From: a virus
Lineage: Duplodnaviria; Caudoviricetes
Direction: 5' to 3' (one strand)
Virus record (IMG/VR): IMGVR_UViG_3300030106_004085
Span: 1 to 57,212 of that record
DNA: 57,212 nucleotides
In this document: piece after piece, positions 100 through 56,247 of the stretch
Layout: every line of letters begins with the position of its first letter
How positions within the stretch are numbered: position 1 is the stretch's first letter
Position numbers and translations under genes: made by a program
The notes under the pieces: model-generated
The model's database searches: none
Told to the model about the DNA's origin: nothing
What the model saw: the letters and a program-made list of their open reading frames with translations, nothing else

Positions 100-3000
100 C
101 TGGTCGTTCGAGTATTGACCGCTACTTCTAGCAGCCATTACCTCAGTAAATGCGTCAGGCCGCATAAGAACAGCTTCGTGTCCAGCTTCTGATTCTATTG
201 GAGCGCCACCAATAGTTGTACGTAAGCTTCGCTGCCATCCCTGCATGCTTGGATCTGTCATAGCCGATATTTCGTCTCGAAGATGATTGGCCATTAAAGG
301 TATTTCAAGCAGCCGAACAGCACCTTTGAGGCCGAACTTAGCTACCTTTTTAATCAGCCCATCCTTAACAGTTTCCTTGACGTTCTTCATTCCATAACGC
401 TCACCAAGCTCCTGTATAGCTGTGGCGGACATGCCCTTCATTCCATCGGCGATCTTATCTAAGTTTTTAACCTTTCTAGCTTTCAGGTACTTAATAACTT
501 CTTCGCCCAGAACTTCTGCACCTTGGGCACCCAAAGCTTCCATTGGTATTTTACGCAATGCTACGTTAGTCCACTTGCTTAAGGAGTCTTTCATTGAGCC
601 TGTTACATTCATGGTTGCCATGTATGCAATGTTCTGCTTAACCATATCGGACAAATACGAAATACTCTGCCTTTGACCTGTTGCTTCAGACAAACCAACT
701 ACATTGATAAGACCTTCTGGCACCTTATCCCGAATGTCCATGGGCTTATTGATAAGGTCTTCACGCAACGAGCCAAACATCCCTTCTGTCTCTTTACCTC
801 GAACGACTTGATCCTTCCAAGACATGTCGTCGTAACTGATAGGTTGTCTAAATACAGCAGTCCTTCCTTTGTAGGCATCATCATTAAGCGTTGCGTTTCT
901 TAATGATGACATTAAATGATTCCATGCAGGATGGTTTTCTGGTCGGTTATTGAAAGCATCCGGGCTTGCCTTAACATCCTCTCGTATATACGAAGCCAGC
1001 CTGTTTAAGTTGTCTGCATCTTGCTGGCTTATCTGATTCCGAGAAACCATTGTAGATGTCAACTGCTCCATTGAGCCGTACTGCCCTTTACTTAAATCGT
1101 AAGTTCGACTGCTTTCAGCCTCTGCTCTTTCTAGGTCGCTAAGCTTATTCCACTCCGCTGCAGTCTGGAATCCCGACAAGGCTTCACCAATGTCAGTCGC
1201 ACCAGATACCAAGGGAGATTTCTGGATAGCTTGCGCCTTTTGGTAGCTTCGCTTTGCAAAATTAGTGCTTTGGTCAACCTTGTCTTTAGTCCAGTTAGCA
1301 GCCCTTCTTATCTTTCCAGGGGTTTTTGCCTCTCCTTGACTAGCTACGTCATTTAAGGAAGGTTGAGAGCTTTGTGTTGTTTGACTTGCTGCTTGCTGAT
1401 CAGGAACTTGTGCGGTAGTTGGGTTAATCCCTGGAGGAGGATTGACTTGGCTTTTGTGAGTTTGCCCAGTCTCTCCAGCCTTCCGGTCTTGCTCACCATA
1501 AGGAATGGACTGTGTTGTAGGATTGACATTAGGTGTGGCAGCCGGCGGAGGTTTGACAGCAGGTTGCGCGGAACTGCTTACTCCTAATGAGCTTATCCAC
1601 ACCGCGGCCAGTTTCTGTCTCTTGGCTGGATCCATAGTGTTTCTTATGTGGACAGGTACATCTTTCCAGGTTTTTCCTGCAGCATATAACTGATCCGCAA
1701 TTTCCTTGCCGTAACTACCGATTGCATCCTGATACCCTGCCTGCCAGACCTTACTTTCAGGATCTGACACAGGTTCAGCTGTAGGAGTGACATCAGGCTG
1801 ATTGACATTAGGGGGAGGGGCTGACACGGGTTCAGTGGTAGGAGTGACACCAAGGATCTGCCCTGGCCCCGCTTGCCCAGGATCTACCATACCTAAAAGC
1901 TCTCCAGTTATAGGGTCGATTGCAGGGTCAGTCGTAGCGTCAGTGGTAGGACTGACGTCAGGCCTATTAGCTGAATCGCTGTCGCCTATCGGAAGAACAC
2001 TTTCTAAAGTATTTCCTATCTCCTGAGGGGGGCCGCTTAAATCTGAGGTTGCGGCTTCTTGCTTAGCTCTAATTTCTTCCGCTTTTTGATGCAGCTGATC
2101 TTCGGTGGCGAAAGGATCAACCCCTCCTTCAGTTGCTATAATAAGATCCCTATCTATTTCCCGCTGGCTATAAGGTATTTGTTCTGCATCTGGGGCAAAG
2201 GGATCAACCATCTCTTGTTCTGCATCCGGCACAACCTTATTTATCGTATTGCCCTGCTCTCCTGTCAGGTCACGTATAACATCCTCTGGTGATACTTGCT
2301 CAGCCCGCCCAACTAAAGGATTGTCCATGTCAGGCGCAGGTGCTAGTTGAGATGGCCCTGAAACGGTTTCAGTGGTCGGTTGAACTGCCGGTTGAGGCTG
2401 GCTGGAAGGCGGAGGAGCAACAGCCTGAACCTGACTGCCTGTAGTTACAAGTATCTGGGCTGCCATAGACTTCTTGGTTGCCTTAGGCCCTGGCTGTTTA
2501 CCCATACCCAAGAGAAGCGATTTGAGCTGGCTTTTATTCAGGTTATTGGCTAAATAACTTTCATTGCCCGCTGCTATTGCACGCCGAATGGATTCTTTTT
2601 TCTTTGTTTTGAAGCCTTGATTTACTAACCAGTCTTCTATTTCTTGTTCGACCTTATTCATTCCATCATCTTCCATTCCGCCAGCTACAGGTGGTGGATC
2701 TTTAGGTGGTTCTCCATCGCCAGTTTCAACAGCTTCATTTACAATTCTAGATATATCATCGTCGGTTTGTATATCTATCTGATTGTTAGCACCTCCGCCC
2801 ATAAGTTCTTCTTCTGGGATCTCGGTCATTCTGTCTGGGTCATCAAAGGCTGTGAGGATAACTTTAATATACTCTTCGGCTTGAGGGCTAGGCTTGGTGT
2901 CAATAGATAGACCAAGCTGATCTTCTACCATTCGGACAATATCGTCTTTAGTTCTGTTTCCTAGGGTGAGTTCGGCTTCACTGAGGCCGAGTTGAATCCC

Positions 3001-6000
3001 CGCGTTTTTAATCTGGGAGTATGTAACTTTGTCTAAGATGTTATCAATAGGTCTTTGTCCGTCAGGCTGGAACTCCCACTGACTTGGATCTTGCATCATG
3101 CTAGCCAATTGTCCAGTTGTAATGTCTTTTGGCATAATGGAATCTTGCCCGTACCGACTCTCCCCTGGCATTTCTCTTCTTGCATCAGCGTGCAATTGGC
3201 CATACATATTGCCATCGCTTCGATTCGGTCGGTCTTTTTCGTCTGTAGTCTGACCCCAAAACTGATCTGCGTCTGATTCAAGAGGAGTCTTGGCAAACTG
3301 GAATTGGCCTTTACCTGTCCTTAATGTAGTTCTAGCTGCTGAAGCAGAAGCAACTTGAGGTACAGTCATTTGCATACGCACAAGAGTACGCATAACCCGA
3401 CCTCTCACGTTCTTCCAGGTGCTTGCATTAACAAGCTTTTTATCTGATGTTTTAGCGTTCTTGTCATGTTTAGCCAGCCTATCTAAAATAGCAACCTTCT
3501 CTTCGATCGTTGAAGCATTAGCTATCTGAAGTTTGGCATCTAGGTCGAACGTCTGTTGTCCTAAATAAGCTGAGTAGATGTCTCTGTATTGCGGAAGGTT
3601 TGCTTTATCTACCGCTTTACCTTTGTTTCGATGCTTAAGCTCTTCATCCGTAAACGCAGGATTAAATACAAGATCCCTAAAGAAAAAGTCAGGATCTACC
3701 TTAGTCATGTCTGTATCAGGCTGAAGTATAGAAGGCGTGTATCCTATTGGAATGTTATCATAAGACTTGGCTGGGACGCGCCTTGGAGATGGGGGTATAT
3801 ATTCCCTCTGTGCTGTTGCTGCATCATAAGGAGAAGCAAGTCCACCTGGGCCTAACCTGATTGCATTAGGCTGTTGAGCTAAAAGCTCTGCTTCAGCTTG
3901 AGCTTCTGTTATTCCTTTTTGTTTTGCTAAATCTCTAATAGCACGATTGCTAAACGCTTTTGCTGATTCTGTCTTGAGATCAGAGTAAACTTTCCTAAGC
4001 TCTTCGTTTGACATCTGGTCAAACAGTTCCATCTCAGCAACCGTATCGAGTTGCCCTCTGCTTTCGACCCAATCTTGATGGGTTCGAGTTCCACCTTGCT
4101 CCACCTTAGCTCCCGGAGGTAGCCTTAATGAACGAGTAGGAACATTCGTTTCTCCTGCGATCACTGTCCCAGTACGAGTAACTAACCTGGATTCAAAGGT
4201 GGACTTCATAGGGACTAGTTGATAGTTGTTCCCTTTTCTTTTCTCCTGTTTAACAACCATATACCAAGAAGCCAGGCTTCTCTTTTGGCCCGATGGCCCA
4301 GGCTTTCTCGACGTTTCTTGATAATGAAAGCCTTCAACCTGATGCTTCATTATCTGAGAAAGCTCTTTGATGATTGTGTTATATTTACCTTCTCCGCCTA
4401 GCCTTTCAGCGATTTTTGCTGGTGTGTTTGACTTATTCTTTAGTTCTGGAGAATTGACTTCGTAATAAATACTCTGAAGAGCAGACATGACCTCATCATA
4501 CTCTTGTGCAGTTTCTATTTCGTTCAAGACGGTGATCAAATCGTCTGAAAGCATATGTCGTTTATATTTATTTGGCTTTCGTCTTTTAGTTTTAAGATGC
4601 TTCTTTGTAGGCATCTCAACTGAAGTTACTTCAGGGTACTTAGACTTCCCTCTGAATACTTCTACTTCTGCTTGTTTAACAGGTATCTGCTGAAGCTGGT
4701 CTAGTCTTTTAAGTAACCCACGAACGTGTAGCGTTTCTCCTGCTGTCGCAAAATCCTCTGGGCTTGGAGCCATTCTTTCAGGGATGTGTGTTTTCTCAGT
4801 TCTAAGTTGATTGAGAATTTTTGGCTGGCTGCTTGAAAGTATTCCAGACAACAACGACTTATGTATCTGCGCCTGCAGACTGTTCCTGACAATATTGTCT
4901 TTGCCAAATGGATTCCTTTTCAGAACGACAGAACGCCCCTTAATCTTTTTGTCGCTGTCAGAGCTTTGTTCTGTAGTCAATCGGTATATGATCGAATCAA
5001 CTATTCCGGTTTCAAAGAGCTTGTCCAACTGCCTGCCAATTTGCTCGATAGCATCACCAGAAGTCTGAATGTCGTAAGATACTTTTTGCCGTGCTTCCTG
5101 AATAGATATACCTTCCTCTTGCGCCACCCTCTGGGCTAAGTCTTCATCTCTTCCGATTGGTTGATCAGAAAGTTTTATATCATCAAGACTAGATGGTGCT
5201 GGAGAAAATACATCCCTATCATCATATAGATCATCCCCGCCTCCAAGCATATCGCTTTCCAGCTTAGCTTGTGTTGAGTAAGGCAACTGAGAAGCAGGTA
5301 TTTGGGCTGCACTTCTTGCACCGATAGACTCTTGAAATCCTGAAAGCCCGTGAAACATCTCAGCAATAGACTTGAACCTAGCGACATTCTGCTGAATTCC
5401 ACCAAGGTTAACGGTAGGAAGATGGCTATCTATTTGGAATGGCTTTCGGGTTGGAGTCTGACCTCTCCCTTCGACCAACACACCGCCGGAAACAAAGTCC
5501 TCTCCAGAAGTTGTTTCTGTGGTTACGTCGATGTACGGCGTGCGCCCTATCTCTTCTCTTGCTGCATGGAAAGTTAATAGCAATCGAGAAAAATAAAGAC
5601 CATCCTCGGCTATCTTTAGATCTCTATTAATTCTTCGTTGTTCATCTGCGATTGCAGCTCTTTCCCCACTTCCGGCCTTGGTTCTTTCAGCTCTTCGCTT
5701 AAGATCTTCTAGTTCTTTTGTCAGCTCATTTTGCATATCAAAAGACAGCGATCTTAAAGCATGACCTGCATCAGGATCCCAAAACAAAAGGAGAAGCCAA
5801 TCAGATTGCGTACTTGATATAGGGGATTTCGCCATATTTACGAATCCACCTTTGTACTTTGTTATTTTGTTTCTTCTTTCGTTTACCCCATGGTTTGTTT
5901 TGAAGTTATCTCCTAGGTAGATTTTAGGAGTTTCAAGTTCGCCTCTTTGGTTCTTTACCTTAGCGTCATTTAGAAACTCATACAATCTTTTAGCGTACGC

Positions 6001-7521: not shown

Positions 7522-10500
7522 TTAAGTTAGAGTCCCTCTGTACCAACTAGCGTTACCCAAAGCCTGGTTAATTTCTTCTTGGGTGAGTGAAGACGGGTGA
7601 ACAGCTTGATTGAGCCATTCTTGTTTCGTATCAGGGCGTGTCAAGCCAGCTGCTAGCATAGTGACGGTATCAACTGGCTGCAGATCAATACGCACCGTAT
7701 TCTCTTTCGGTGTTTTCCAGTATTGCTGTCCTGTATCTGGATCTGTTACGAGGTATGGCAATGGCTTATCATAAACTCGTTTGAAGAACATTAAAGCACG
7801 CCCTGCTGAATCGACAAAAGCATTAGCTCCTAATATATCAAAGAATGACTTATTGCCATTAAGACCTGTTCCTTCGTTTGCCTTGTCATAGTTTTCTGGA
7901 AGAATTTGTTTTATATCAGATACTTCTTCTCCGGTGGCAGTATTTTCACCAGTCCACGGCTTCCAGTCTATGTCGTTTTGGTTGCCTTGAGTATTAGCAG
8001 TTTCTCTGTAATTAAACTCATCAGCTACTTGCTGTTCTTTTCTTTCGAGTGGTGTTACAGTTGGATCAAATACATATGAACCATCCTCGTTCTTTAAGAT
8101 CCTAAGAATGTCATGACCCATGTGTTTATTTAGACCCATAGTTGACATCTTTAATACATCAGCCCCTGAAGCCATCATCTGACTACCTGTTAATGGATCT
8201 GTGAATAGATACTGCTTGTCAGGATCTAGTTCTATATCGTTCCAGAAGCCAGGCTGCTCAAGTCTTCGTCTGGTTTCTATTTCGACAGCTGTCAGTTTCC
8301 CTGGCTGCGTTCTTGTGTTACGTAGTAAGCTTTCTATATCTAAATTACCCAAGTCCTCATCAGAAAGGCCTGTCAGCATTAAAGATAACTGGCGATTATC
8401 TGGATCTTCTACGTTGTTGTTGTACTTCTGATCATCTACCCAAGACATAAAGTCATCTAGCGATATACTCCCTGACTGGTAAGCTTGCTTATCTAAATCT
8501 CCGTAGTTATACATTGACCACTGCTGATTGCTGTCACTCGATTGCTGCAAGCTATCTCTAATAGATTGCTCTAGTGCAGCAACTTCATTAGGATCGTCAA
8601 ACTCACCAAGGGCTGCCCTGCGACGCTCTTCTGCTTCAGCAGGGTTTGTAGGATTTCCGGCTGTTGGCTGAAATCTCTCTCCGGCTGCTCTCGCCTCGGC
8701 TGCACGGTTAGTTAGACTTTCTTTGAGCTTTGCCTCCTCCTCGCTCATCCCATACATCATCATCGCTTCAGAGGAAGTTATAGTTTTTCCCGACGGTGTA
8801 TGAAGAAATTTAAGGGGATAACCTGGCAATCGCTCTAGCTCTTTTCCCATGGCATTTTGGTACTTTTGTTCAGGAGTGAGCTGACCTGAGAGAACCTGAC
8901 TTAAAGCATCTGTATTCGCTCCCAAGTTAGCTCTCCAGTCTTGTGAACCCAACGCATTCTGTTGCTGTGGCTGTGCATTCATGCCTTGAAGTGCTTGAAC
9001 ATTTGCATTTACTTGAGGGTTAACTTGAGCAGCAGGCTGAGCTTGCTGTTGCTGGTTTCCAGCTAGTGCATTGACAACTGGATTGTCCATCATAGCTTGC
9101 AAAGCTTGTACGTTTGCATTAACACCTGAGCTAACAGCAGGCTGATGTGGCTGGGCACCTATTAAAGCACCCGAGATAGGATCTGTCTGTTGCTGGGCAA
9201 CCCCTGAAACGGTTTCAGCGGGCTGCTGTTGCGTGTTGCCCATTTGATTAAGGGCTTGGACATTCGGATTAACAGCGTTGCTTTGCTGGGCAGCAGGCTG
9301 TTGGGCACCTATAGCTCCCACCAATGGATCAACAGCTCCCTGATCTCCTCCAACTATTTGATTGAGTTGGTCTATTGGATTCTGACCTTGAGATCCCTGC
9401 GTTGCCCCAAAGCTGTTCTGATTACTACCTTGAGCAAAGCCTTCATCGTAGTCTTCACCGCCGCCGAATGTTTCATCTCCACCACCAAATACATCACCGC
9501 CGCCCATTCCCATGCCGCCGGTATCGCCTTGTCCGTATATGTTAGCGAACCACTCACAAAATTGATTTAGCAGTTCCCCTTTTGCTTGTGGAGCCATTAC
9601 GTTAATTGGAATTAGGGGTGCTGGCATATGAACTACATCAGACTTCCACTCTGTCACTTCCCAGTTGGCATCATCATCTCTTGGGTCTGGGCCATAGTTG
9701 TAAGATGGGTCAGCATTTGCTGGATCGCTGGCACTGTTTTTAAGCCAGACTTTTGTTACATTTCCAGTTTCATCTGTAACTTCATAATAGGCTTGCGGCT
9801 GACCTGGAGGGGGAGGGCCAAACGAAAGATGGTCGGCATAGGGTCTTATTATCTCCGGGGCAGATTCTTTATAAAGCATGGCTTTCTGGACAATCGGTGT
9901 AACCAGAGGTATAGCAGTCTTGAAGGCCATACTAAAGTCATTAAACAAATCGTCTGCTTTTTCGGGAGTGTAGTTGCTAAGGAAATCATTAACCTTAACC
10001 ATAAGGCGATCAGCTTCGCCCTTAAGAATAGTTACCCCTGCCTTCACTGGATTAAGACCAGTTAGAGCTGCAATTGCCTGATCGGGATTAGCGAAGAAAG
10101 GTCGCATTTGATCGAAGATAGCACGAGCATCCGCACTTCTGAACTGATCTGCAAGTTGAACAGCGTGATCTCGAATATTGAATTCTGCAAATTTCGCTTG
10201 GAGATTGTTGAAAAGTTCTTCTGGAACTTCAGCATATAACAATCTGTTATCATTCGGATCTTGCCCGGATACATAATTATCTGAATGGGCCGCAGCACCA
10301 AATTCAAACTCTCTGACCTTATTTCCTGCACGACCCCCGAAATATTCCCTCAAGGCCGCACTCGATATCCCAGCACTTGCTAAATCTGGATATACTTCCT
10401 TTACCCAGTCAAAATAAGTGCCTTCGCCAAATTCATCATAAATAGATCTAAGCGTTGTGTCTGAGTTTAACCAATCAACATTATCTCCCCACGCACCTCC

Positions 10501-16075: not shown

Positions 16076-17254
16076 TTAGCTACTCGTAGTAATGACATTG
16101 GATAAATGAGTAAATAGGTAATCGTAGCGGGTCATTCTACCTGAGCTATTCATAGCGACTCTGGATTCAGCCTCTAAAGCCCGTCTCAATTCAAAGTCAG
16201 CAACTTTTTGTGCAGTTACTGTACCTCGCTGGTCATTAGAAAATCTAGCGAGCCTGTATTCCATTTGTGCCTTAAAAGCTTCTAGCATATTATCTGACAT
16301 GTCTATGGGATCAGATATTAAAAGCTTTGCGCCCGAATAAGCTTGGGAAAGGGTTCCTAAAATGCTAATAGTTCCTGAACCTACGGCTGTAATTTCATGC
16401 TGCTCATTAAACGGGTTTGATCCAGAGAAGCCGGTAGGCAATGCGGAATCAGCAGCAAGGCGAACAATAGATCCAACCATAGAGCTAGGCATGGTAACAG
16501 CACCACTTGAATCGGCAACCGATGTGATAGCGGGATCGGCTGAAGTTGAACCATTGGCTGTACAGGTTCTGGCCTTTGCTTCTGTACCAGACCATCGCAA
16601 TACACGGGGTTTTCTTCGGTACATAAACATTAACGGTTCAGCTGTACTAGGATTTGGATCAACATAAAGCGCCCACACACCCTTGTCGTGAGGATCTTTC
16701 ATGATAGTCCAAGCCCAAGTTTGCCCTGTTCCCGAGAAATAGCGTTCCCTTTTTTGCCACTCTGTAGGCGAAATGTAATAAGTCACCCAGTTATTCTTCT
16801 CTATCCCGACCTCGTAAATCCGCTGCATGTCTGATGGCAAGGGGTAGATGCTTCTATGGATAGTATATTTAGTACCCCCTGAAATCGTTTCAGTGGGCTT
16901 TAATGTACCAAGATTGAGAACAGTGGTACTAACTCTCTTTGAGACATCGTACAAGTCATCGCCAATTTCAATCCGGCCATACTTAGCCCATGTAGGCCAA
17001 GTGCCTCCAGTTAAAGTTAGCTCATTGGTAGATGTGTTATACGCGACTGTCCCTGTAGAGTAAGAGGCATCTAAATTTACACGACCTTCGGTCATGTAGT
17101 ATTGCCATTCATTGCCCATGGCTATATCTCGATATGCGCCCTGAATAACTTCTTTGTGCATTCGCAAGTCTTTAGTTCTTGCGCCACCATCAAGCAAACT
17201 TGTAAGGTAGGATAGCATGTCGTCATAAGTAACGTATCGTTCTGATATTGACAT
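16076..17254 (-). CDS. Head-tail adaptor-like protein with inserted beta domains
   Basis: 392 aa with helical ends and YPLPSD and W-LYVDPNP motifs. Lies immediately upstream of the nozzle gene. Confidence 0.55.
   Translation of the reverse strand: MSISERYVTYDDMLSYLTSLLDGGARTKDLRMHKEVIQGAYRDIAMGNEWQYYMTEGRVNLDASYSTGTVAYNTSTNELTLTGGTWPTWAKYGRIEIGDDLYDVSKRVSTTVLNLGTLKPTETISGGTKYTIHRSIYPLPSDMQRIYEVGIEKNNWVTYYISPTEWQKRERYFSGTGQTWAWTIMKDPHDKGVWALYVDPNPSTAEPLMFMYRRKPRVLRWSGTEAKARTCTANGSTSADPAITSVADSSGAVTMPSSMVGSIVRLAADSALPTGFSGSNPFNEQHEITAVGSGTISILGTLSQAYSGAKLLISDPIDMSDNMLEAFKAQMEYRLARFSNDQRGTVTAQKVADFELRRALEAESRVAMNSSGRMTRYDYLFTHLSNVITTSS
16879..16893. promoter_or_regulatory. Palindrome site 3 CTGAAATCGTTTCAG (in adaptor gene)
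   Basis: Perfect match. Confidence 0.8.
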
Positions 17255-19727: not shown

Positions 19728-22035
19728 GGCTCTTTGCTCTCATAAAATCAAGTTCTTGTTGATGCTTCTCACGACTTTGGTTCAGCTCTTGTTCGTGCTT
19801 CTCTTGGTCATGCTTAAGCTTTTGGTTATTCATTTGGATTGCAAGCTGCGATTTCTGCTGCTCAATCTTAAATCTTTCTTGCTCAACCCTCTGATTTGCT
19901 GACTCTTTTTGCGATTGGCTTTGAGAATCTTTTTGTTTTTGAGCGAGTTCTGCTTGAGCTATCTGAGCTTCCTGCTGTTTCATCTGTATATCAAGCTGCT
20001 TGACTTGAAGATCAGCTTGCATCTTTTGCATTTCCATCTCAGCCTTTTGCTGCTCAACCTGAGCCTGCTGCTGCTGGGCTTGCTGCTGTTGCTGCATCTG
20101 AGGGTCTTGCTGTTGCTGTTGAGCTTGCTGCTCCTGTTGTTTCTGTTGCTCTTCGGCGATATTAACAAGGTAAGGAGCAACATCTAGTTCATTTGCTTTT
20201 GCCCAGTCACTCATAAACGCATTGTATGGATCACCAATACCCATCTGTGCAAATTGCTGCATCATTGGCATTGCTATCTGGCCAAACTCATTTAACTGCC
20301 TAATTCGGTTTACTTTGTTCGGCTTTCTTGCTGAACCAGCTTCAATTCGGTAGTTGTAATCTCTTACGGTTTTTTCAAACTCTTGAGCTTGTATTTGCTG
20401 TTCCCATATCATTGACCCGACTTCACCCAAGACAGGCTTAACGTCTTCCTGGGTAAGCCCCCACTCAGCGGCTTCCATCTCTTTCATTGCACAATGACTT
20501 AGCCAATCTTCGACGCGACTCGCCATGTCGTCAGGACGCACTGAGACGTTCTGATTGCGTACATCAGCTTCCGTAGCAGAACGTATCTGAGTACCGCCCG
20601 AAAGCCCGTACAGAAGCTCTGTGAGGCCTGTACGCTTATCTATCATGTCTAGCACTTCAGACACCATTCTCCATATGTCTGAATTAAAAGATGGAGCATC
20701 TAAGAATGAAACGACATCCGATACTCGCTGACCGAATATTTCACTTAACTCAATGACACCATATGGCCCCATTTTGTTTTTAATTTGATCTTGAATCTCT
20801 GCCCCTGCTGCCTTAGCTACGGCAACATAAGTCGTCGAGCTTGCTGCCACTTTATCGGCAAGAAAAGACATACACCAGTTAACAAATCGAAGCTCTCCAA
20901 TAGCTGGCTTAATCAATGAGATTGGCCAGACTTCTTTTGGCTTCTCGTAGAAATGTAGCTTGCTAAATGGCCAGCCACCATCCGTCCAGAAAGGTATGGG
21001 CCACTGCGACCTGACAAACATCTCTTCTTGAGGAAGATCGAGAACCTCTGGAGGCATGTTCATGGGGAATGGAATGTCTTCACAAACGGCCAAGAAACAG
21101 AAATCTCCGAACTGCTCGTAGTCAAAGTTTTCCTTAACGTCCTTTTTGATTCCGCCTTTCTTTAGGCGAGAACCAAAACCCCCTTTAGAGTACACTTGCC
21201 AGTATTCTACTAGATCGTATGACTCTCCCTTTCGTTTCGATTCAGAGCTTTCTTTTCTGCCCTTTGCCTTTACCTCTGCTTGCTTAGCAGCCGAAGACAT
21301 ATTGCCGCGTATCTTCCCTTCAATGCCATACTCCCTCTCCACCTTCCAGACGGGGTGAACGCACTTACGGGCAATCCATTGAACGTCTTCCCAATACTGA
21401 GCATCAGGGTCAATCACAATGTCATCAACAGAAACATAAACACTTCTAGGGTGAGATACAGTAGAGCCGTGAGGCTGGTGCATTTCAGTCCATAGAAAGC
21501 TCATGCCTTTAATGATGGCCTCGTTAATGGCCATTCGAGCATGCTCTTTCTTTTGGTTCTCCTGCTGAAGCCAATTCAGATAATGTTCCTTCAGCCTGGC
21601 TATGTTTCGCTTTTTGTCATTCTCCTCGTCTTGCTGGTAGACAAGTTGTTGAGCCTGTTGGACTTGAGCTTCATCCTGAGGATTAATTCCCAGCATTATA
21701 GGCTCAATCTTGGGTGCTACTTTTGGTGATACCTGTATTACAGGATTTCGGTGATAGAGTACGGGGCCGAACAAAGCGACGGCCTCAAATACTCTATTCA
21801 CCGTCATCCTGAAGGTTGGTAAGTTGCCAGTGGTACTCTTATCAAGGAACCCTTCGTTTCCTTTCGAGTATGCACCCTTCCACATAAAATCATGTGAACC
21901 GTCAAAGAACTGCATGGCTTCTTTAGCGTACCTGCCAAATCGCTCTTCTTTTTGTTTCTTAGCGCGTTTAATCTTTTCCATCCACTGACTAACAATGGGT
22001 GAAAAAGGATGGTCGTAATCGCTATATTGATCCAT
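19702..22035 (-). CDS. Portal protein (P22-like, with C-terminal Gln-rich coiled-coil barrel)
   Basis: 777 aa after TerL. Contains VSVDDIVIDPDA and TGLTELLYG...SATEA motifs and a long Q-rich helical tail. Confidence 0.85.
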   Translation of the reverse strand: MDQYSDYDHPFSPIVSQWMEKIKRAKKQKEERFGRYAKEAMQFFDGSHDFMWKGAYSKGNEGFLDKSTTGNLPTFRMTVNRVFEAVALFGPVLYHRNPVIQVSPKVAPKIEPIMLGINPQDEAQVQQAQQLVYQQDEENDKKRNIARLKEHYLNWLQQENQKKEHARMAINEAIIKGMSFLWTEMHQPHGSTVSHPRSVYVSVDDIVIDPDAQYWEDVQWIARKCVHPVWKVEREYGIEGKIRGNMSSAAKQAEVKAKGRKESSESKRKGESYDLVEYWQVYSKGGFGSRLKKGGIKKDVKENFDYEQFGDFCFLAVCEDIPFPMNMPPEVLDLPQEEMFVRSQWPIPFWTDGGWPFSKLHFYEKPKEVWPISLIKPAIGELRFVNWCMSFLADKVAASSTTYVAVAKAAGAEIQDQIKNKMGPYGVIELSEIFGQRVSDVVSFLDAPSFNSDIWRMVSEVLDMIDKRTGLTELLYGLSGGTQIRSATEADVRNQNVSVRPDDMASRVEDWLSHCAMKEMEAAEWGLTQEDVKPVLGEVGSMIWEQQIQAQEFEKTVRDYNYRIEAGSARKPNKVNRIRQLNEFGQIAMPMMQQFAQMGIGDPYNAFMSDWAKANELDVAPYLVNIAEEQQKQQEQQAQQQQQDPQMQQQQQAQQQQAQVEQQKAEMEMQKMQADLQVKQLDIQMKQQEAQIAQAELAQKQKDSQSQSQKESANQRVEQERFKIEQQKSQLAIQMNNQKLKHDQEKHEQELNQSREKHQQELDFMRAKSRAQGSPQE

Positions 22036-30746: not shown

Positions 30747-30990
30747 GGGGGTGGCTCGTAAATCTCCGAATAGCGAGTCGCCCCCTCCCCTCGTAACTCC
30801 GCCAGCGCAATACACGACTAAAGAACTGCTGGGAGTGAGCCTGTTTCGCAAACGGGAGTGTTCCCCAGTCTCACCTGTAATACAATATAGGTGGGAGCCT
30901 GAGTTACCTACGGACTTACCCCTGAAATCGTTTCAGTGGTAGCCCCCGTAGCCCTTATCTCTGAGTCGGGGTGCGCGCTTGAGAGGACAC
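30747..30990 (+). ncRNA. Candidate structured 5' leader / ncRNA (unclassified)
   Basis: Several nested stems: 30747-30785, gtaactc/gagttac, tctcacctgta/tataggtggga and ctacgg/ccgtag. G-U pairs favour the plus strand. Confidence 0.45.
30922..30936. promoter_or_regulatory. Palindrome site 4 CTGAAATCGTTTCAG (intergenic)
   Basis: Perfect match. Confidence 0.8.
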
Positions 30991-30995: not shown

Positions 30996-31274
30996 ATGAA
31001 AAAGTATTACGTACTTGAAGAAGAATATGGACGTGGGCCTATTAAAGGTGATGTGTTTGTCTGGGAGGGTGAGTATTGGAACAATACCGCTAATTCAACC
31101 AAACCTGAACTGCTAGTACGCTATTTGTATGACTTCGATGGCTTTTTCTTTATTGTCCCAAGAAGTGATCTGGTAGAATTTGTTTCTGAAAGAGAGCTTG
31201 AAGACCCTGATAAATACCACGATCACCCAGCAGACGGTAGAAAAATCTGGAACGTGTTCATTGAGAGGATGTAA
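30996..31274 (+). CDS. Hypothetical protein
   Basis: ATG at 30996 with SD gagagg; 92 aa. Confidence 0.7.
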   Translation: MKKYYVLEEEYGRGPIKGDVFVWEGEYWNNTANSTKPELLVRYLYDFDGFFFIVPRSDLVEFVSERELEDPDKYHDHPADGRKIWNVFIERM

Positions 31275-32858: not shown

Positions 32859-32887
32859 ATTATACACGACCACTGAAATCATTTCAG
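32859..32887 (-). promoter_or_regulatory. Putative promoter whose -35 position coincides with a palindrome half-site
   Basis: Minus strand CTGAAA-N17-TATAAT followed by AGGAGG. Confidence 0.5.
32873..32887. promoter_or_regulatory. Palindrome site 5 CTGAAATCATTTCAG (intergenic, promoter-overlapping)
   Basis: Perfect match. Confidence 0.8.
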
Positions 32888-37128: not shown

Positions 37129-38053
37129 AGCTATTGATGAAATAGAAGGATACTTTAACCACATACCCCTAACGATAACAAGACCAGACATACCCATACA
37201 AACAAACGTAGAGATGGCATTAAGGGCATCGTTCAAGATCGTAGCTGGATACAAAGAAAGGTTTCAGATTGAAAGGCTATGGGAACCCAGAGCAAAGGTA
37301 AGAGACAAGTGGAAGTTCGGGTACTTAAAACCTATATCAAGGACAAGCCCGGACGATACGGATACAGCTGAGTATCACCACATAGGATACGCATTGCTAG
37401 TTAAAGACAGTGGAACGACAAGCGGATACAACATAGAGATCAGCTACAACCACGGGAATCAATGGCATTCACTAGAGTATGCGACCATACAATCAGGTAC
37501 TGTACCACTACCTGATAACTACTATCACGTATGCGTTTCGAAACTAGAAGCAATGCTTCTTGAATTACGTGGCAACGCATGGCCTGAGTTTAACGACAGA
37601 CTTGGTACAACTCAGACACACAGTATAGTTGACCAGATATTGAAGATGATATGGGAAGACGCTGTTGAAGTGCAGAAGAATGTGTATTGGATACCAGAAA
37701 CTGTGTATACATGGGAGACATTCAGGCAAGACATCAAGCATTTCTGTACAGTATTAGATTTCCCACCAGAAAGAAACCCTGAATCCGTTTCAGCGTTGTT
37801 TGAATCCCTAAAGAAAGACATCAAAGATAACATACATACTGCAAAGAGAGAAGCAAAGGATGAATTCAAGGGGTGGAAAGGACAGCATGCCCTAGAAAAC
37901 ATGAGTAAAGCAGATAAGTATCGAGAAATGTTTGGAGGATTAAAAGAATTCCAGGAACTTGTAGAAGAATTAAAAGACGAAGCAAAGCCATTAGCTTACG
38001 AGCATGTTGTTCGTGAGGAAGAAGATGTTTTCAGTGATATAACAATTGACTAG
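37049..38053 (+). CDS. Hypothetical protein upstream of the AAA+/VWA pair
   Basis: 334 aa, SD gaggag, with VYWIP motif and helical C-terminus as often seen in genes preceding phage MoxR/VWA modules. Confidence 0.75.
   Translation: MSEKINKLMGTIAITKPHVMKMRDASKAIDEIEGYFNHIPLTITRPDIPIQTNVEMALRASFKIVAGYKERFQIERLWEPRAKVRDKWKFGYLKPISRTSPDDTDTAEYHHIGYALLVKDSGTTSGYNIEISYNHGNQWHSLEYATIQSGTVPLPDNYYHVCVSKLEAMLLELRGNAWPEFNDRLGTTQTHSIVDQILKMIWEDAVEVQKNVYWIPETVYTWETFRQDIKHFCTVLDFPPERNPESVSALFESLKKDIKDNIHTAKREAKDEFKGWKGQHALENMSKADKYREMFGGLKEFQELVEELKDEAKPLAYEHVVREEEDVFSDITID
37779..37793. promoter_or_regulatory. Near-palindrome site CTGAATCCGTTTCAG (1 mismatch)
   Basis: One mismatch; same reading frame (PESVS) and a cc 5' flank like the perfect sites. 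Confidence 0.5.
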
Positions 38054-40790: not shown

Positions 40791-41195
40791 ATGGCTAGTT
40801 TTAGCAATGTAGTAATAGTTGGTAACCTAACAAGAGATGTTGACTTGCGTACTGTTGCAACCAGGAATGGCGACAAGGAAGTAGCAGATATAACAGTAGC
40901 AGTTAACGATGGTTACGGAGAAAACCAGGCAGTTAGCTTTATTGATGTTACTCTATGGGGTCAGCCAGCTAAATTCGCAAGCGACTTCATGGGTAAGGGG
41001 TGGCCTGTCTTAGTGCAGGGTACACTGAAACAAGAAACCTGGGAGAAGGATGGGCAGAAGCGAAGCAAGATCAAGATCGTCGGTAGTACGATTAAGAACT
41101 TGAGATCCAAGAGGGAAGCTGAAGAGATGGGGCTAGGTACTGAAACGGTTTCAGCATCTCAACCATCCTTCGATACAAGTGCACCACCATTCTAG
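40791..41195 (+). CDS. ssb: Single-stranded DNA-binding protein
   Basis: NVVIVGNLTRD, FIDVTLWG, KGWPVLVQGTLKQETWEKDGQKRSK and a C-terminal PF. Confidence 0.95.
   Translation: MASFSNVVIVGNLTRDVDLRTVATRNGDKEVADITVAVNDGYGENQAVSFIDVTLWGQPAKFASDFMGKGWPVLVQGTLKQETWEKDGQKRSKIKIVGSTIKNLRSKREAEEMGLGTETVSASQPSFDTSAPPF
41140..41154. promoter_or_regulatory. Palindrome site 6 CTGAAACGGTTTCAG (in ssb)
   Basis: Perfect match. Confidence 0.8.
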
Positions 41196-43837: not shown

Positions 43838-44668
43838 ATGAAACAAATCTTAGAAATCTCAGCAGACGAATACTTTTCTTTACCGTATCTCTCTCAGTCT
43901 GCAATAAAAGACTTTAGAAACGAAGGGTCTTGGACTTACTACCACAAGTATGTCAAAGGCGACATAAAATCTAAGCCCCCGACTGATGCAATGAAGATAG
44001 GCTCAGCATTGCATGCCATCATATGCCCTGACATCGACATCGCTGAAACCATTTCAGTGGTGCCTGAATGGATAGACTTTGGCGGGATGCAACCTGAGAA
44101 AATTAACCGCCGATTAAAGAAGCATCGAGAATACCTTGCTGACTTTGAGGCAAAAAACAAGGGGAAGATAACACTAACAGCTAAAGACATGGATACAGTT
44201 ATGGGGATGAGGGAGTCAGTCCTGAACAACCCAGCAATATCTAAATACATAGACAGGCTCACAGCCAAGAGGAGTGAAGTAGTAGCGTTAAACAAGGTTA
44301 ACGACTACGATTGTAAAGCAATGTGCGACGCTGACTTTTCCGACGAAGGGCTAATCATAGACTTCAAGACAACTCGCCAGCACCTAGGTAAAGAGTTTGT
44401 TAAAGACGCTATATGGAAGTACGGTTATCAATACCAAGCAGCTCACTACTGCGATGTATTCAACGCAGAAAGATTCCTTATCGTAGCAATAAGAAACTTT
44501 CCGCCTTATGAATCCATGGTATTTGAAATGCCAGAAGAGTTTATTGGACAGGCCAGGATGCTTAACTATCAGGTGATAGATAGGATCAAATACTGCGAGT
44601 CACTATCGGAGTGGCACTCAGATGGCTGGGGAGAAATTATTAATATCGAGGAGATCATCGATGCCTAA
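43838..44668 (+). CDS. RecE/ExoVIII-like PD-(D/E)xK exonuclease
   Basis: LSQSAIK, AMKIGSALH, CKAMCD, IIDFKTT and YGYQYQAAHY motifs. Confidence 0.88.
   Translation: MKQILEISADEYFSLPYLSQSAIKDFRNEGSWTYYHKYVKGDIKSKPPTDAMKIGSALHAIICPDIDIAETISVVPEWIDFGGMQPEKINRRLKKHREYLADFEAKNKGKITLTAKDMDTVMGMRESVLNNPAISKYIDRLTAKRSEVVALNKVNDYDCKAMCDADFSDEGLIIDFKTTRQHLGKEFVKDAIWKYGYQYQAAHYCDVFNAERFLIVAIRNFPPYESMVFEMPEEFIGQARMLNYQVIDRIKYCESLSEWHSDGWGEIINIEEIIDA
44043..44057. promoter_or_regulatory. Palindrome site 7 CTGAAACCATTTCAG (in RecE-like gene)
   Basis: Perfect match. Confidence 0.8.
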
Positions 44669-45287: not shown

Positions 45288-45471
45288 TCTCCAGCATATC
45301 CATGTCTTATGCTCTATGCTTCTAGATTCAGGCAGCCCACAAGAGCTAGCTGAGTATGGCAAGAGCATAAAGACTTGGAATATGAATGAGCGAACTAAAG
45401 AAGTAGCGAGGGAACTATACACCTCGCGAATGGATACCATCCTAAGTAAAGGAAACGATATAAATGTCTGA
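45271..45471 (+). CDS. Hypothetical protein
   Basis: 66 aa, overlapping both neighbours. Confidence 0.6.
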   Translation: MKETLNLQHIHVLCSMLLDSGSPQELAEYGKSIKTWNMNERTKEVARELYTSRMDTILSKGNDINV

Positions 45472-50737: not shown

Positions 50738-51054
50738 TGGCAGCAAAGGATTTCATAGGCCCTGGTTTTGTTGGCGATAATAACATTAAGTTTATTGTCA
50801 CTAGAGGGATGGCTGTACTAACGCCAGATCCTTTGTATATCTCTATGACTCATTACTTAAGAGGCATTGAGGGTAATATAATTACTCAAGACGACGAGGG
50901 TGCCATCAAAGTTCAGTTCGGGTACGGTGTACCTGATCCATTTACAAATACAAGCGATACCTTTGTAGCAATGGAAGGCTACGAAAAAATTGGTGGCGAT
51001 TCATTTGTCGTACTAGAAGATCACGCAGGTAATATAAAGATAAAGATTATCTAG
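50737..51054 (+). CDS. Hypothetical protein
   Basis: 105 aa, TAATG coupling. Confidence 0.7.
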   Translation: MAAKDFIGPGFVGDNNIKFIVTRGMAVLTPDPLYISMTHYLRGIEGNIITQDDEGAIKVQFGYGVPDPFTNTSDTFVAMEGYEKIGGDSFVVLEDHAGNIKIKII

Positions 51055-54000
51055 TGCGAGCGTCGCTTCTGATCTTGTTGTTATACTTTAGCATCTCAAG
51101 AAGATTGTATTGGTCGCTTCCAGGGGTAAGGCTATCTAGCGTAACGCCTGCTTCTGGCTGCGGTATATTGAACTGGTAGAACCCAGGTGTAATGTCTACC
51201 ATGTCCAATACTTTCCTATTCATTGTCTGTCGCTTTTGTTTATCAGCGTCATAAATAGTTCTCTGGCCCATGGGCAGTAGCATCATCAAGTTATCGACTG
51301 TCTTGTTGTCAATTATCTTTGGATACCATCCTCCCCATTTCTTTCTGCCAGCTTCGTCCATCTCTTGGTCGAACACATCCTCCTTCTTCAGTGCACGGGC
51401 GTGCCCAGGAACCAATCCAAACACAGGGTGGTTTAGCCAGTGGTTCTTATCTCTTACTTGAAGGTCTGCGTCTTTCCCGATTACAGTTTTACCTCTAGAT
51501 AACTGACGGGGATCTCTGCCGTAGAACAAGTCCTGCCCAAACGCCATCTCTGCTCCAACTTGAGCCACAGGGTTAGCTCTGACTGCTAGGTTTCTAGCTA
51601 AATCTCCAGGGCTAAAGCTTGTAGGTATTAAGTTCATAACATCTTCAAAGGGAGTACCTACGCTGTGTATGTATTTCATCTCCCTGGTGCCATCCTCTTT
51701 GACTTCATCATATAAAGGTACACCTGCACCCTCTCTGATATAATCTGGTGCCCAAGGTTGGAACTCATCATCTCTCTTAAGGCGACCGATGCCACGCATA
51801 GTGTGCATCATTCTACCGCCTGGTTCTGTTACCATTTTCTCAAGAACAAATGGCACCATGTGCCTAGTAAATGTATAGAAGCTAAAGCTCCTACGCATTA
51901 CATTCTTTTCAAAGTCACTGAGATTTGAGTAATCTACTTGTGACTTCTTAACTAAGTCTACCGCTGCCTTTGGGCTATAGCCTTCTTTAACCAGCTTCCA
52001 GAATGGTGCGATTCGGTTATATCCTTCAATCTTACTAGCAGCTTTGTGTCCTGCTGCGTGCAATGCTGAACGGTGACTATCTCCAAATGCCCCCTTACCT
52101 ACCATTGAACCAGGCGAAAACGGGAATACTGGATTGACCATACCCACAATATCCCACAGCGTCATGTCGTATTGACCGTTCGCACTTTTGGAGAATAGTC
52201 CTTTGATGTATTCCATAGATGCTTCAGTGCCTTTAACAGGCTTGTCGGACATCTTAACAAGTTCACCAACCACGTCAGCGTGCTTTTGGTTCAGGATAAC
52301 TTCCATCTGTGGGGATTGCATATCAGGAACCCACAGTCTATTGCTGAATATATGGGCTAGTCCGATGCGAGTCCCTATCTCATCCGTCATACCACCGGCC
52401 TTGGCAATATCCGCTTCGATAGTTCTCCTTAAAGAATCCGGGAATATGGACAAGTCCCAGTTCACCCTTCCTGCACCGGCTACAGCATTGCCCAGCATCG
52501 TATTGTGTGCATCCGCTAAAGAGCGAGCACTCCAAGATTTTGTGATCCAGTTGTTGAACTGACCGCCAAGGAAGTTTCTAGTATGGAAACTAGGGAAGAG
52601 TATAGTAACACCAGCACGCCAAGCATTCTGGAACTTGTCCAATACGGAAATAAACTCAGAGAAGCCATTCACTTTCCCTGGATTTTGCTGTGCCTCAAGA
52701 AGCATACCTGCACTTGAAACCATTTCTTCGGGGACATAGATCATATGTTTAGATCCATGGTCATTAAGGTAACGGATTATCTGCTCATCCGTTAATCTCC
52801 CTCCCCCACTGACATGCCTTAGAGTTTCTGGATTGGCCTCTATAATTTTGCGGGCCATTGCCACTCCTGGCACTTTCCTTGTAAACGTCGTGGCACCGAA
52901 CTGTTCCTCTAGTTCCCTTCTTGTTCCTGAAGGTAGTAAGACAGATTCCTCTCTCGTCATGCCAAGCTGTTCGAGCGCTGCTTTTAAGCTTATATGTTTC
53001 TGCTGCACAGACCTTGGGTCTAACTTAGATACGGCGCTCTCAGCTAAAGACATACCTATCTGTTCGTGTGTAGCAACAACCCGGTGCATCTTCTCAGCAT
53101 AGGCCATGTACGATTCAACTGGGTTAGCAACAAACGCTGGCATCCCTTCTCTTGCATGCCTTGAATCAAGCTTGCCCATGAACTCGATGACTTGATCTAA
53201 GTGACGATCCTTTTCTGCTTGTGTTGTAGGTCTAGTTACCCTTCTGCCATTTTTGTCTATGTCTACGGCTTTCCTCAGCTCTATGTCAGCGATACCATTA
53301 ATCTGTAACGCGAGTGGTTCTTTACCTCCGTAGCTTAACTTGACTCCTTCTTTCCTACCTGACCCTATCTGTATTGCTTTTCGTATGTACTTCCTCAGGA
53401 AGCTCTTTGATTCCCAGGGTCTGCTTCCTCCGTATGCAGTATCTTCCCATACATTTGTTAGCTGATCTAATGTTTCTCGCCCTGTGCCCTGAAGGTTATA
53501 GCCTCCGTGCTTGTGTGCTATCCCACTAAGGAATGGATCCATAGATAATTCCTGGATACCAGCTATACCGTGTGGTATATCCCTGAATAACACACGAGCT
53601 TCCTGGGATTGATGCTCTGTTAAGGCTGTTGCTTTAGGCTTGAACTGTGTAGGTGATCCATCGCCGAATCCCTGGAATAGCATACGGTGTACATAGTTAT
53701 CTCCGATCTCAAGATCGTCAAGCATCTGTACTTCCACACCGGCTTCGCGTGCACGAAGGTACATCTGCTTCATGTCTTTCTTTAGATCAAGAAGGCTGTC
53801 ACCCACGGCCTTTAAGTCCGTTGGCAAGTTGTATGTCTCGTCCTCCATGAACCTGGTTAAGGCGATGTGGTTTCTGGATACTTCTTCCTGAGTTAGTTTT
53901 CGCCCACCACCTAGGTCATGGCCTACTGCAAACCTTTCAGGAATAGCCTCCATATTACGCAGGACATTTTCAGATCGAAGCCTAACCAAACGGTCAGCCT

Positions 54001-54958: not shown

Positions 54959-54978
54959 GCTATTGCCTCAATTAATCG

Positions 54979-56247
54979 TTAACGATATTTCCATACGTCT
55001 TCTGGCTTCCTGTCTTTCGATTCCGAGCCACCAAACATGCCCTTTATACTATCGAACCAGCCTTTTTCTTCTTTAGGCTTTTCTGTTTCAAAGTCTCTTG
55101 GGTCGCTAGGTGCAGAAAGAAGGCCGTTTGGCATTGCATTTAGGTACATCTTAACTAGCCGACCGTACTGCGGGTGACTCTGGTACTCTAAAAGAAGAGG
55201 CGTGTTCTTTATGAACAGCTCATACTCTTTTCTGTGATGCTGGCGGAACCGGGCAATTCTTTGTTTGCGTTCTTCCGGTGTTAGGTTTTCATCGTCGGCA
55301 GGCATGGTTATACCTCTTGCTGCCAGATCATCTTGCATTTGGTCATTATGCTGTGTAATAACCGAATCTATTATACTGCGTACTCCTGCCGGTATCTCCA
55401 TAACTTTTTCGGCCTGCTTAGGTGTGAGAGCTTTAGCCTGGATAAGCTCATTCAGCATAGTAGTTGGCGTGAATCCTTCATCCTCAAGCAGTCGGCCTTC
55501 GGCGAGTATTCGTGCTTGGTTGCCACTATCAAGAGCTTTGGTGTACTGCTTCATTCTTTGGGTAGCAGCTTTTCTTATCTTGTTTTCGTAGTCTTGCCTG
55601 AACCATGGCAAGGTAAATCTGTGGCGGTTTATATCTGCCATATCCCTTGAACTGTACCCAGTCATGGTAACGGGGCCGTACTTAGAGTTTAGTTGCATGC
55701 GTGGATCTATACGAACCCGATGTGTTTTAATCATGTTCTTAGACCACTGATCTAACTGGCTCTTGCTATAGCCTACCGGCCCGTCCCTACGGCTAAACCT
55801 TTCCATGAACATATTCTTATTTACTCTAGGGTTGCCTTTAATGCCTTCCATTATTCTTTGAGCAGAGTGTTTAGCTACTCCGTTTGACATCAAAGACTTT
55901 TCCATCACCTTGTAAACATCTCGTTCATCTGTTTTTTGCTCAGGCTTAAGTTCCGTGTAGCTCTGCTCTAGATTCGGCTGAGGCTGTGGCTCTCCTCCCA
56001 TTACCAAACCACCCATATCACTAGCACCTCGCTCTGAAACGGTTTCAGGGGGTGCAGCCTGCGGCGATACACTGGCTCTAATCATCTCTTCGGGAGGCAG
56101 CCTCTGTTCACTCCAGCCTGAAACAGGCGAAGGCCCATGAACATCAGATTCCATGCTGCCTGTGTAATACTTATGCTTTAGACCGGGCACAAAAGGCCTG
56201 CGAGGATCTACTTCATCTGCATAGTCATTTGGATACATTGGATTCAT
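54979..56247 (-). CDS. Putative internal virion protein
   Basis: 422 aa between the two largest late genes. Confidence 0.65.
   Translation of the reverse strand: MNPMYPNDYADEVDPRRPFVPGLKHKYYTGSMESDVHGPSPVSGWSEQRLPPEEMIRASVSPQAAPPETVSERGASDMGGLVMGGEPQPQPNLEQSYTELKPEQKTDERDVYKVMEKSLMSNGVAKHSAQRIMEGIKGNPRVNKNMFMERFSRRDGPVGYSKSQLDQWSKNMIKTHRVRIDPRMQLNSKYGPVTMTGYSSRDMADINRHRFTLPWFRQDYENKIRKAATQRMKQYTKALDSGNQARILAEGRLLEDEGFTPTTMLNELIQAKALTPKQAEKVMEIPAGVRSIIDSVITQHNDQMQDDLAARGITMPADDENLTPEERKQRIARFRQHHRKEYELFIKNTPLLLEYQSHPQYGRLVKMYLNAMPNGLLSAPSDPRDFETEKPKEEKGWFDSIKGMFGGSESKDRKPEDVWKYR
56034..56048. promoter_or_regulatory. Palindrome site 8 CTGAAACGGTTTCAG (in 422-aa gene)
   Basis: Perfect match. 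Confidence 0.8.

Follow-up and report, generated by a model that had tools for sequence, protein, structure and literature searches.

Dispersed palindromes and a ParB-like protein with a covarying predicted recognition helix in a marine tailed phage: a possible orphan KorB-like operator system

The plasmid RK2 carries about a dozen OB sites dispersed over a replicon of ~60 kb, some of them far from promoters or inside genes. Several dispersed palindromes per replicon are likewise found with other ParB-family proteins, namely the SopB sites of N15 and the NBS bound by Noc; N15 has the partner SopA and lives as a plasmid, and Noc is chromosomal and binds the membrane. The stoperators of Cluster A phages, many scattered repressor sites in transcribed regions that are thought to silence the prophage genome, are asymmetric and orientation-dependent and occur in temperate phages whose repressor has been identified. 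KorB, which acts at OB, is described in the available text of PMC11790492 as a cytidine triphosphate (CTP)-dependent sliding clamp that silences genes at long range, and ParB-CTPase folds are described as common in phages, often fused to other domains, in the available part of a 2025 survey (PMC12704722). In the literature searched for phage ParB-like proteins linked with dispersed inverted repeats, the closest case was that of the Cluster O mycobacteriophages, whose 17-bp dyad repeats (in Corndog TGTTCGG-N3-CCGAACA, 34 copies) have a function recorded as unknown in the available text of PMC4351075. According to that text these repeats occur throughout the genome, between and within genes and mostly off promoters, and are predicted by the authors to bind a dimeric DNA-binding protein; the phages lack an integrase and parAB, yet encode a protein with a ParB-like domain, gp90, and stoperators are mentioned in the discussion. 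Here we analyze an array of this general kind in the complete virus record IMGVR_UViG_3300030106_004085 (57,212 bp, analyzed whole and called the window below), in which the palindrome CTGAAA-N3-TTTCAG recurs and the 45464-46261 gene encodes a ParB-like protein that we consider the candidate binder.

The window is like the KorB/OB system in combining a putative ParB-fold protein bearing a predicted helix-turn-helix (HTH) with around a dozen copies of one short palindrome. It differs in that no ParA/IncC partner was found in the phage and no KorA-like partner was recognized, in having DGHHR rather than GERRxRA and a Cys-knuckle C-terminus, and in showing no sign of plasmid maintenance; moreover Pfam and hhalign detect no homology of the 45464-46261 protein to canonical ParB. 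With the Cluster O repeats it shares invariant inverted arms, a variable 3-bp center and dispersal between and within genes, but sequence and host are unrelated and there are 8-12 copies in the window vs. >30 in Cluster O. Corndog gp90 matches Pfam ParB_N (E = 2.7e–6), and hhalign of the 45464-46261 family alignment against gp90 returned a probability of 0.05% and no alignment. No link between gp90 and the repeats is proposed in the available text on Cluster O, whereas the window shows covariation of a predicted recognition helix with the motif, and a copy of the motif in a structured leader RNA. Stoperators also are many copies of one site scattered along a genome, but the sites in the window have dyad symmetry, and neither a repressor nor a lysogeny module was recognized; the SopA partner, plasmid life and membrane binding of the N15 and Noc systems are likewise not seen in the window. 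What appears to be new here is natural variation that implicates one particular protein as binder, with differences between dyads mapping to three residues of one ParB-like protein. Our overall reading, to which we assign a probability of about 0.5, is that the palindromes are binding sites of a phage ParB-like dimer, forming an orphan KorB-like operator system. Of its two parts, that some phage-encoded dimer binds the sites as double-stranded DNA seems quite probable, and that this dimer is the 45464-46261 protein is favored by somewhat better than even odds.

The eight exact copies and the one-mismatch copy at 37779 listed in the initial annotation of the window were all recovered, together with a second one-mismatch copy at 53926 (Table 1). 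The relaxed core CTGAA-N5-TTCAG has 12 copies, the additions being 4620, 21565, 28091 and 37779. Copies with at most one mismatch averaged 0.29 (maximum 3) in dinucleotide shuffles, none of the 100 shuffles reaching 10, and when every palindrome having 6-nt arms and a gap of 0-7 was counted, only CTGAAA-N3 exceeded two copies, apart from its nested form TGAAAC-N1. The initial annotation had proposed codon-preserving shuffles as a check, and these too left the copies unexplained: shuffling codon order within genes predicted 0.008 copies in coding DNA, and synonymous-codon shuffles that keep the proteins (n = 2000) gave a mean of 0.16 and a maximum of 2, vs. the seven observed. The 12 sites are over-dispersed on the circular map (coefficient of variation of gaps 0.57, P = 0.037; smallest gap 1951 bp, P = 0.003), and 10 of the 12 lie deep inside long genes. 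The count of six exact copies in genes and two outside fits, with the qualification that of the latter two only 30922 lies in a noncoding leader; the 32873 copy probably sits at a gene start, because the ATG in its spacer is the first in-frame ATG of ORF (open reading frame) 32367-32912.

Seven of the eight exact copies and both one-mismatch copies share the coding-strand frame nCT GAA Ann nTT TCA G, read as x-E-T/M/S/R-V/I/F-S/A. The constancy of this E-T-V-S frame had been taken as a signal, but it is a by-product, because one of the other frames holds a TGA stop and the other open one (CTG-AAA-nnn-TTT-CAG, L-K-x-F-Q) is 3.5-fold less probable by genome codon usage; the chance of all seven coding copies sharing the frame is 0.78^7, or ~0.18. 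Orthologues have other residues at the same aligned positions (for T-E-T-I-S: TGAIA, TGDLS, GEAIS or AANIS), with no insertion. That the motif peptides align with differing orthologue residues indicates that the sites arose in place by substitution, which rules out insertion of a mobile mini-element as their origin, and the cost of making them would have been amino-acid changes in variable loops. The E-T-V-S peptide as the selected object is ruled out by the synonymous shuffles together with these orthologue residues, and the earlier proposal that selection acts on the DNA rather than on the peptide is thus supported.

Persistence of the sites while neighboring sequence drifts had also been anticipated, and was seen in two contigs 91-97% identical to the window (G001 and G002) that jointly cover most of the genome. 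All 11 of the sites falling on these contigs were kept. Change was absent from the arms (0/110, 0%) and found once in the spacers (1/55, 1.8%), compared with 16/220 (7.3%) in flanks of ±10 nt and 142/2895 (4.9%) in flanks of ±150 nt; at the flank rate, zero arm changes would have a probability of ~0.004.

Pooling of the 24 half-sites extends the site to a 21-bp dyad, CCnCTGAAAY-N-RTTTCAGnGG, in which the flank extension is palindromic too. Numbered inward from the outermost position, the half-site has C at position 1 in 14 of 24, C at position 2 in 19 of 24, C (9) or A (8) at position 3, an invariant C-T-G-A-A at positions 4-8, A at position 9 in 17 of 24, and a pyrimidine at position 10 in all 24 (C 15, T 9), leaving a single free base at the dyad center. 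The spacer is therefore Y-N-R, whose Y and R are unable to pair in a 3-nt loop. Four sites deviate from A at arm position 6, and only the one at 4620 keeps complementarity; no G-T wobble-type change occurs in any arm of the 12 sites. This independent decay of half-sites, together with symmetric conservation at unpairable positions, argues for a dimer reading double-stranded DNA and not for a stem.

In more distant relatives the motif itself is different. CTGAAA-N3-TTTCAG with at most one mismatch was absent from the relatives whose portal is 67-75% identical to that of the window (four complete genomes and several fragments); in its place each of these lineages bears a similarly built dyad of its own, with an N3 or N5 center and 3-5 copies: (GTG)CGGAAA-N3-TTTCCG(CAC) in G007 (three copies), the TGGAAA type TTTGGAAA-N3-TTTCCAAA in G010 (five), ATGGAAA-N3 in G016 (three), the CTGCA type TTACTGCA-N5-TGCAGTAA in G017 (four) and an ATGACA-WWW-TGTCAT-like dyad in G008 and G011 (four each). 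In G008 and G011 the lineage's own palindrome lies, as does the window copy at 41140, at the 3' end of the SSB gene. The resemblance to the chromosomal parS half-site that had been pointed out for the window is probably coincidence, with close relatives using GGAAA, TGCAA, GGCAA or TGACA.

The protein encoded at 45464-46261 tracks these differences. Its N-domain has as landmarks an invariant D50-G-H-x-R54 (here D50-G-H-H-R54, in IIDGHHR) and R89-R-N91 (NQxGRRNLTP); the predicted recognition helix is D128-R-T-V-W-S-D-K135, with family pattern G-V-T-x-R-T-x-x-x-D; and the Cys knuckle comprises C229, C235, C238, C246 and C249, the knuckle ending in CxxCxGTGFLSR. The comparison covered the 22 orthologue families represented in all six of G000 (the window's lineage), G007, G010, G016, G008 and G011, and we marked as class-specific any column identical within the GGAAA class (G007, G010 and G016) and different in G000 and in G008/G011. 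Only the 45464-46261 family had three consecutive such columns, residues 131-133, which fall in the predicted recognition helix. The residues go with the dyads as VWS with CTGAAA, IRN with xGGAAA, MYN with CTGCAA, VRN with CGGCAA and LQR with ATGACA; G007 and G000, otherwise close, are one base per half-site apart and differ together at residues 131-133. The idea in the initial annotation that the motif would change with the HTH of a ParB-like protein is thus consistent with the pattern across lineages.

Further family members were drawn from viral and metagenome contigs, for 22 records, many of them close relatives of one another. The dyad GGAAA-N3-TTTCC was found in eight of the 10 records with helix RTIRND and in none of the 12 with another helix. 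Among those others, RTVRND accompanies CGGCAA-N3 in L183 (two copies 6 kb apart), RTMYNS accompanies the CTGCA type in L098, one of whose dyads is identical in sequence to the tip of the leader hairpin in L081 (leaders are described below), and STIKRD accompanies AGGTCA-N3 in L110 and L111 (one copy each). When the helix is masked for tree building, G000 (VWS, CTGAAA) and G007 (IRN, CGGAAA) group as sisters, and the combination of IRN with GGAAA recurs in another clade, so that helix state predicts the dyad better than does overall relatedness. The ParB-like protein is present wherever its genome region is on the contig. Of the three candidate binders named in the initial annotation, this one remains the best, and the other two do not track the motif: the HTH_17 protein 43108-43317 is ruled out by a near-constant helix, and the recombinase-like protein 41644-42420 has only scattered class-specific columns. 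The phage CsrA homologue is ruled out as binder by its presence only in G000 and G007.

Table 1. Palindrome copies in the window, with the candidate binder and the early-operon leader
Feature	Coordinates	Strand	Remarks
Exact palindrome CTGAAACGGTTTCAG	2358..2372		Within giant minus-strand ORF; kept in G001
Variant CTGAAG-TTA-CTTCAG	4620..4634		Giant ORF; both arms A to G, dyad symmetry retained; kept in G001
Exact palindrome	9204..9218		Within ORF 7522-11358 (-)
Exact palindrome	16879..16893		Within ORF 16076-17254 (-); encodes T-E-T-I-S
Degenerate copy CTGAAGCCAATTCAG	21565..21579		Portal gene, other reading frame; weakest member
Degenerate copy CTGAATCGACTTCAG	28091..28105		ORF 26994-28196 (-); kept in G001
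Exact palindrome	30922..30936		Tip of variable hairpin P5 of early-operon leader RNA; 59 nt upstream of true ATG 30996
Exact palindrome	32873..32887		Spacer holds first in-frame ATG of ORF 32367-32912 (-)
One-mismatch copy CTGAATCCGTTTCAG	37779..37793		ORF 37049-38053 (+); kept in G002
Exact palindrome	41140..41154		3' end of SSB gene 40791-41195 (+)
Exact palindrome	44043..44057		PDDEXK (DUF3799) gene 43838-44668 (+)
Doubtful one-mismatch copy CTGCAAACCTTTCAG	53926..53940		Mismatch breaks invariant CTGAA core
Exact palindrome	56034..56048		ORF 54979-56247 (-)
Structured 5' leader RNA, ~190 nt, five helices	30793..30981	+	Covariation; variable hairpin carries palindrome
First early gene, 93 aa from conserved ATG	30996..31274	+	Directly downstream of leader
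Candidate binder, 265 aa	45464..46261	+	ParB/Srx-like N-domain, predicted HTH, C-terminal Cys knuckle

One copy of the palindrome, at 30922, forms part of a conserved noncoding leader. An alignment of 12 viral-contig sequences supports 30 base pairs in the five helices of this RNA, with 96.9% of cells paired; shifting the partners by 1-3 columns lowers this to 28-48%. Both sides have changed in 13 pairs, and G-U pairs fix the strand as plus. Besides the window, the leader was seen in L076-L087, L336 and L337. No Rfam match was found at gathering scores in the whole window, and 30600-31100 at E up to 10 gave two rows at chance level. The tip of the variable hairpin is the lineage's own dispersed dyad in G000, G007, G010, G016 and G017, and dyads of like kind occupy the hairpin in L081, G006, L076 and L336, so a dyad copy in the transcribed early leader is, among these sequences, common though not universal. 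The leader could be a riboswitch or a protein-binding leader. A scan of 30300-31300 with promoter consensus found two promoter-like sites vs. 1.6 expected, and did not pick a TTGAxx/TAxxxT pair seen by eye upstream of the leader. Conserved yet unmatched in Rfam, the leader gives this genome a second lead, independent of the first.

If the overall reading is right, the 45464-46261 protein would act as a sequence-specific dimer binding each 21-bp dyad, with residue 132 reading half-site position 2 of the core (T in CTGAAA, G in CGGAAA): Arg or Lys would go with G, and Trp, Tyr or Gln with T, a pairing scheme that seems chemically plausible. Because the 45464-46261 gene lies in the plus-strand operon behind the leader copy, binding at that copy might regulate early transcription by feedback or turn it off. 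On the model of KorB and RK2, the remaining copies might be evenly spaced loading or roadblock sites that regulate or organize the whole phage chromosome, and nucleoside triphosphate-dependent sliding or spreading could contribute, as in KorB, Noc or VirB. The fullest version of this proposal joins an orphan family with ParB fold, HTH and Cys knuckle, co-evolving by a simple residue-132 code with evenly spaced palindromes of which one is in a leader-RNA tip, to KorB-like chromosome-wide loading and silencing in a phage without plasmid or lysogeny genes; we hold it only tentatively.

How far the candidate is itself a ParB is a matter of degree. PHROG ParB-like families match it weakly (E = 9.3e–5 and 2.5e–4, over residues 18-63), 16 of the 30 matches in its Atlas neighborhood belong to the PF02195 (ParB_N) set (best score 0.95), and tblastn reaches proteins annotated as ParB N-like or partition, at E down to 4e–20. 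The same N-domain and HTH are found in gp52 of Methanoculleus virus L4768 (L334, NC_074642.1, 29546-30763; tblastn E = 6e–17), where they are fused to an N6_N4 DNA methyltransferase. No dispersed palindrome was found in the Methanoculleus virus L4768 genome, so the pair of N-domain and HTH does not by itself imply such sites.

A number of observations weigh against our overall reading. The canonical ParB motifs are the CTP-binding GERRxRA and an ENLQR-type motif, and the candidate has DGHHR in place of GERRxRA, in variants of the DGQHR/Srx type. Pfam, even with E values up to 1 admitted, showed neither ParB_N nor a ParB HTH in the 12 family members scanned, and searches of NCBIfam, PADLOC and PDB sequence profiles with the 45464-46261 protein were blank, as was Pfam at E 0.01. 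Comparison with P1 ParB by hhalign gave a probability of 0.3%, the sole aligned stretch (117-137 vs. 168-188) placing HTH against HTH. The C-terminal domain is a Cys knuckle and not the ParB dimerization domain. On these grounds we would count the protein among those working in the manner of ParB-family regulators, without calling it a canonical ParB. The covariation is carried by about six independent lineage classes, many of the records being closely related, and a GGAAA dyad is missing from two of the records with the IRN helix, namely L101 (8.0 kb) and L174 (9.6 kb). In G008, G011, L079 and L083 the leader hairpin is a different, unique sequence, and in G008 and G011 the dispersed dyad is not in the leader. 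When dyad placement in the window was compared with that in G007, G008, G010 and G011, 12 of the 17 relatives' copies lay between ORFs, as crudely called, unlike the copies deep in long genes of the window; the other five lay in ORFs of 50-104 aa or in the first bases of an ORF. Such intercistronic placement, along with the copy in an RNA hairpin, would also suit an element acting at the RNA level.

Among other explanations, a different phage-encoded dimeric protein might bind the sites, the helix correlation being a phylogenetic coincidence; the window does have two blocks of genes without orthologues in the relatives and without family matches (32367-37128 and 49262-50737), the motif is lineage-specific and the lineages informative for covariation are few. 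Yet relatives with other dyads would then each need their own unrelated binder, the clustering of class-specific columns in a predicted recognition helix is seen for the ParB-like protein alone of the 22 families, and IRN goes with GGAAA in two separate clades, all of which makes this account unlikely.

The placement data lead to the second alternative, that the palindrome is an RNA hairpin read by an RNA-binding protein or nuclease, serving antitermination, processing or mRNA stability as do lambda N/boxB or the T7 RNase III sites. A palindrome gives the same stem whichever strand is transcribed, one copy is the tip of P5 in a leader RNA with strong covariation support, the relatives' dyads fill short gaps between co-directional genes, the 27-mers around the window sites fold at -4 to -12.5 kcal/mol, and the phage encodes a CsrA homologue. 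Nonetheless we judge it distinctly improbable: the loops vary (CGG, CCG, TCG, TCA, CCA and complements) and are complementary on opposite transcripts; the Y and R conserved symmetrically in the spacer, the three of four arm-position-6 deviants that break pairing and the lack of G-U substitutions do not suit a stem; copies within a genome share sequence and not just structure; and CsrA is restricted to two lineages, with no GGA in the loops. In the lambda nut/boxB system a conserved loop is read by the antiterminator and sites occur only in operon leaders, whereas here the loops vary, conservation is symmetric, and the copies deep in genes are on both strands, with one in a leader hairpin. Hairpin promoters of the N4 type have a 5-7 bp stem and a 3-nt loop upstream of early genes, and are accompanied by a gene for a virion RNA polymerase; stem and loop geometry fit, but the window sites are inside late as well as early genes and follow no orientation rule. 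No virion RNA polymerase was found, although the giant ORFs lack any PHROG match, which does not exclude one.

A host factor, be it a transcription factor, a nucleoid protein or the reader of a self-marking sequence, could in principle explain dyads that differ with the hosts of the relatives, which could indeed be different, and the half-site is, we presume, loosely like LacI/Cra-type and parS half-sites. This seems very unlikely given that dyad class follows the helix of a phage protein, as in the difference between G007 and G000, and given the odd 15-bp spacing, which misfits LacI-family operators. Those operators are even, with a central CG.

The initial annotation had offered a centromere or segregation role, by analogy with the SopB sites of N15, and a ParB-like protein with dispersed palindromes is indeed what a ParABS-like array segregating a plasmid prophage would have. 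We regard this as highly unlikely. No ParA/SopA-like ATPase was found in the ORFs scanned with Pfam, PHROGs and NCBIfam (some small ORFs were unscanned), and the only AAA protein among them pairs, MoxR style, with a VWA/DUF2201 protein; no integrase, plasmid replication initiator or other plasmid replication gene, repressor or lysogeny module was recognized among the window ORFs scanned; a profile search of 185,579 species genomes found no prophage copy and no full-length homologue of the 45464-46261 protein; and the Cys knuckle stands where a ParB dimerization domain would be expected.

Serine recombinases make a 2-bp staggered cut, and over-dispersed sites bring to mind the nick sites of T5-like phages. 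That the palindromes are places where DNA is cleaved, nicked or recombined (by the ParB-like 'nuclease' domain, the HNH protein or the serine-recombinase-like protein with its resolvase domain) or hot spots of module exchange has in its favor these phage-encoded proteins, a RusA protein besides, and a contig from run X19 that joins 32365 to 32871, deleting 505 nt of ORF 32367-32912 up to 2 nt from the 32873 dyad, which is retained at the junction, but we consider the idea highly unlikely, as a single central base pair misfits the staggered cut, the genome would be broken by nicks in both strands of a dyad, the recombinase-like protein lacks clustered class-specific columns, and ends showed no pile-up at sites (in contigs only), with just this one rearrangement end near a site.

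The genome in which the array lies has a 99-bp terminal direct repeat, indicating a circular assembly with a unit length of 57,113 bp. Structural genes occupy the minus strand from 51047 to 57212 and on through 1-30697, and the early, replication and recombination module occupies the plus strand at ~30996-51054. Megablast of 20 kb against 50,697 GenBank phage records gave zero matches, i.e., no near-identical phage, and no tRNA genes were found in the window. Contigs bearing window sequence come from marine metagenome runs of 10 studies (20 runs listed, all DNA contigs). The species-genome profile search yielded only relatives of the N-domain and HTH, spread over diverse phyla, and gave no clue to the host.

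Other features of the window were noted in passing. A single ORF of ~2457 aa spans the assembly junction (56250-57113 joined to 1-6510, minus strand); neither it nor the 1303-aa and 1278-aa ORFs nor neighboring ORFs had any PHROG match. Within ORF 49262-50737 there is a 110-nt internal direct repeat (50007-50116 and 50412-50521; 74% identity, 405 nt apart). The recombinase-like protein at 41644-42420 (plus strand, 258 aa; Pfam Resolvase, E = 1.2e–13) has the N-terminal motif YGYIRDSIDPDYSVDVQ, vs. YGYARVSTDDQ in G010 and G016, and may be catalytically altered. Following it on the minus strand within the plus-strand module, at 42424-43049, are three small ORFs that are membrane-like by weak Pfam matches and 78-92% identical to those of G007, G008 and G011, adjoining genes being ~50% identical; this unusual identity suggests recent exchange or strong constraint. 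The CsrA homologue is encoded at 43317-43502 (plus strand; Pfam CsrA, E = 3.9e–19), and a 130-aa protein at 43435-43827 (plus strand), kept in all lineages compared, matches Pfam RNA_pol_A_CTD over its C-terminal half (E = 1.8e–9). At 38046-40789 (plus strand) an AAA ATPase adjoins a DUF2201 metallopeptidase-like protein with VWA domain, a pair of MoxR/VWA style that is kept in every lineage covering the region.

If the proposed system is real, it would add tailed phages without ParA to the plasmids, integrative elements and chromosomes in which ParB-fold clamp regulators (KorB, VirB, BisD and Noc) are found, and would offer a compact model for the evolution of specificity in ParB-type HTHs. 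The long-unexplained dyad repeats of the Cluster O mycobacteriophages and other phages might then be accounted for along the same lines.

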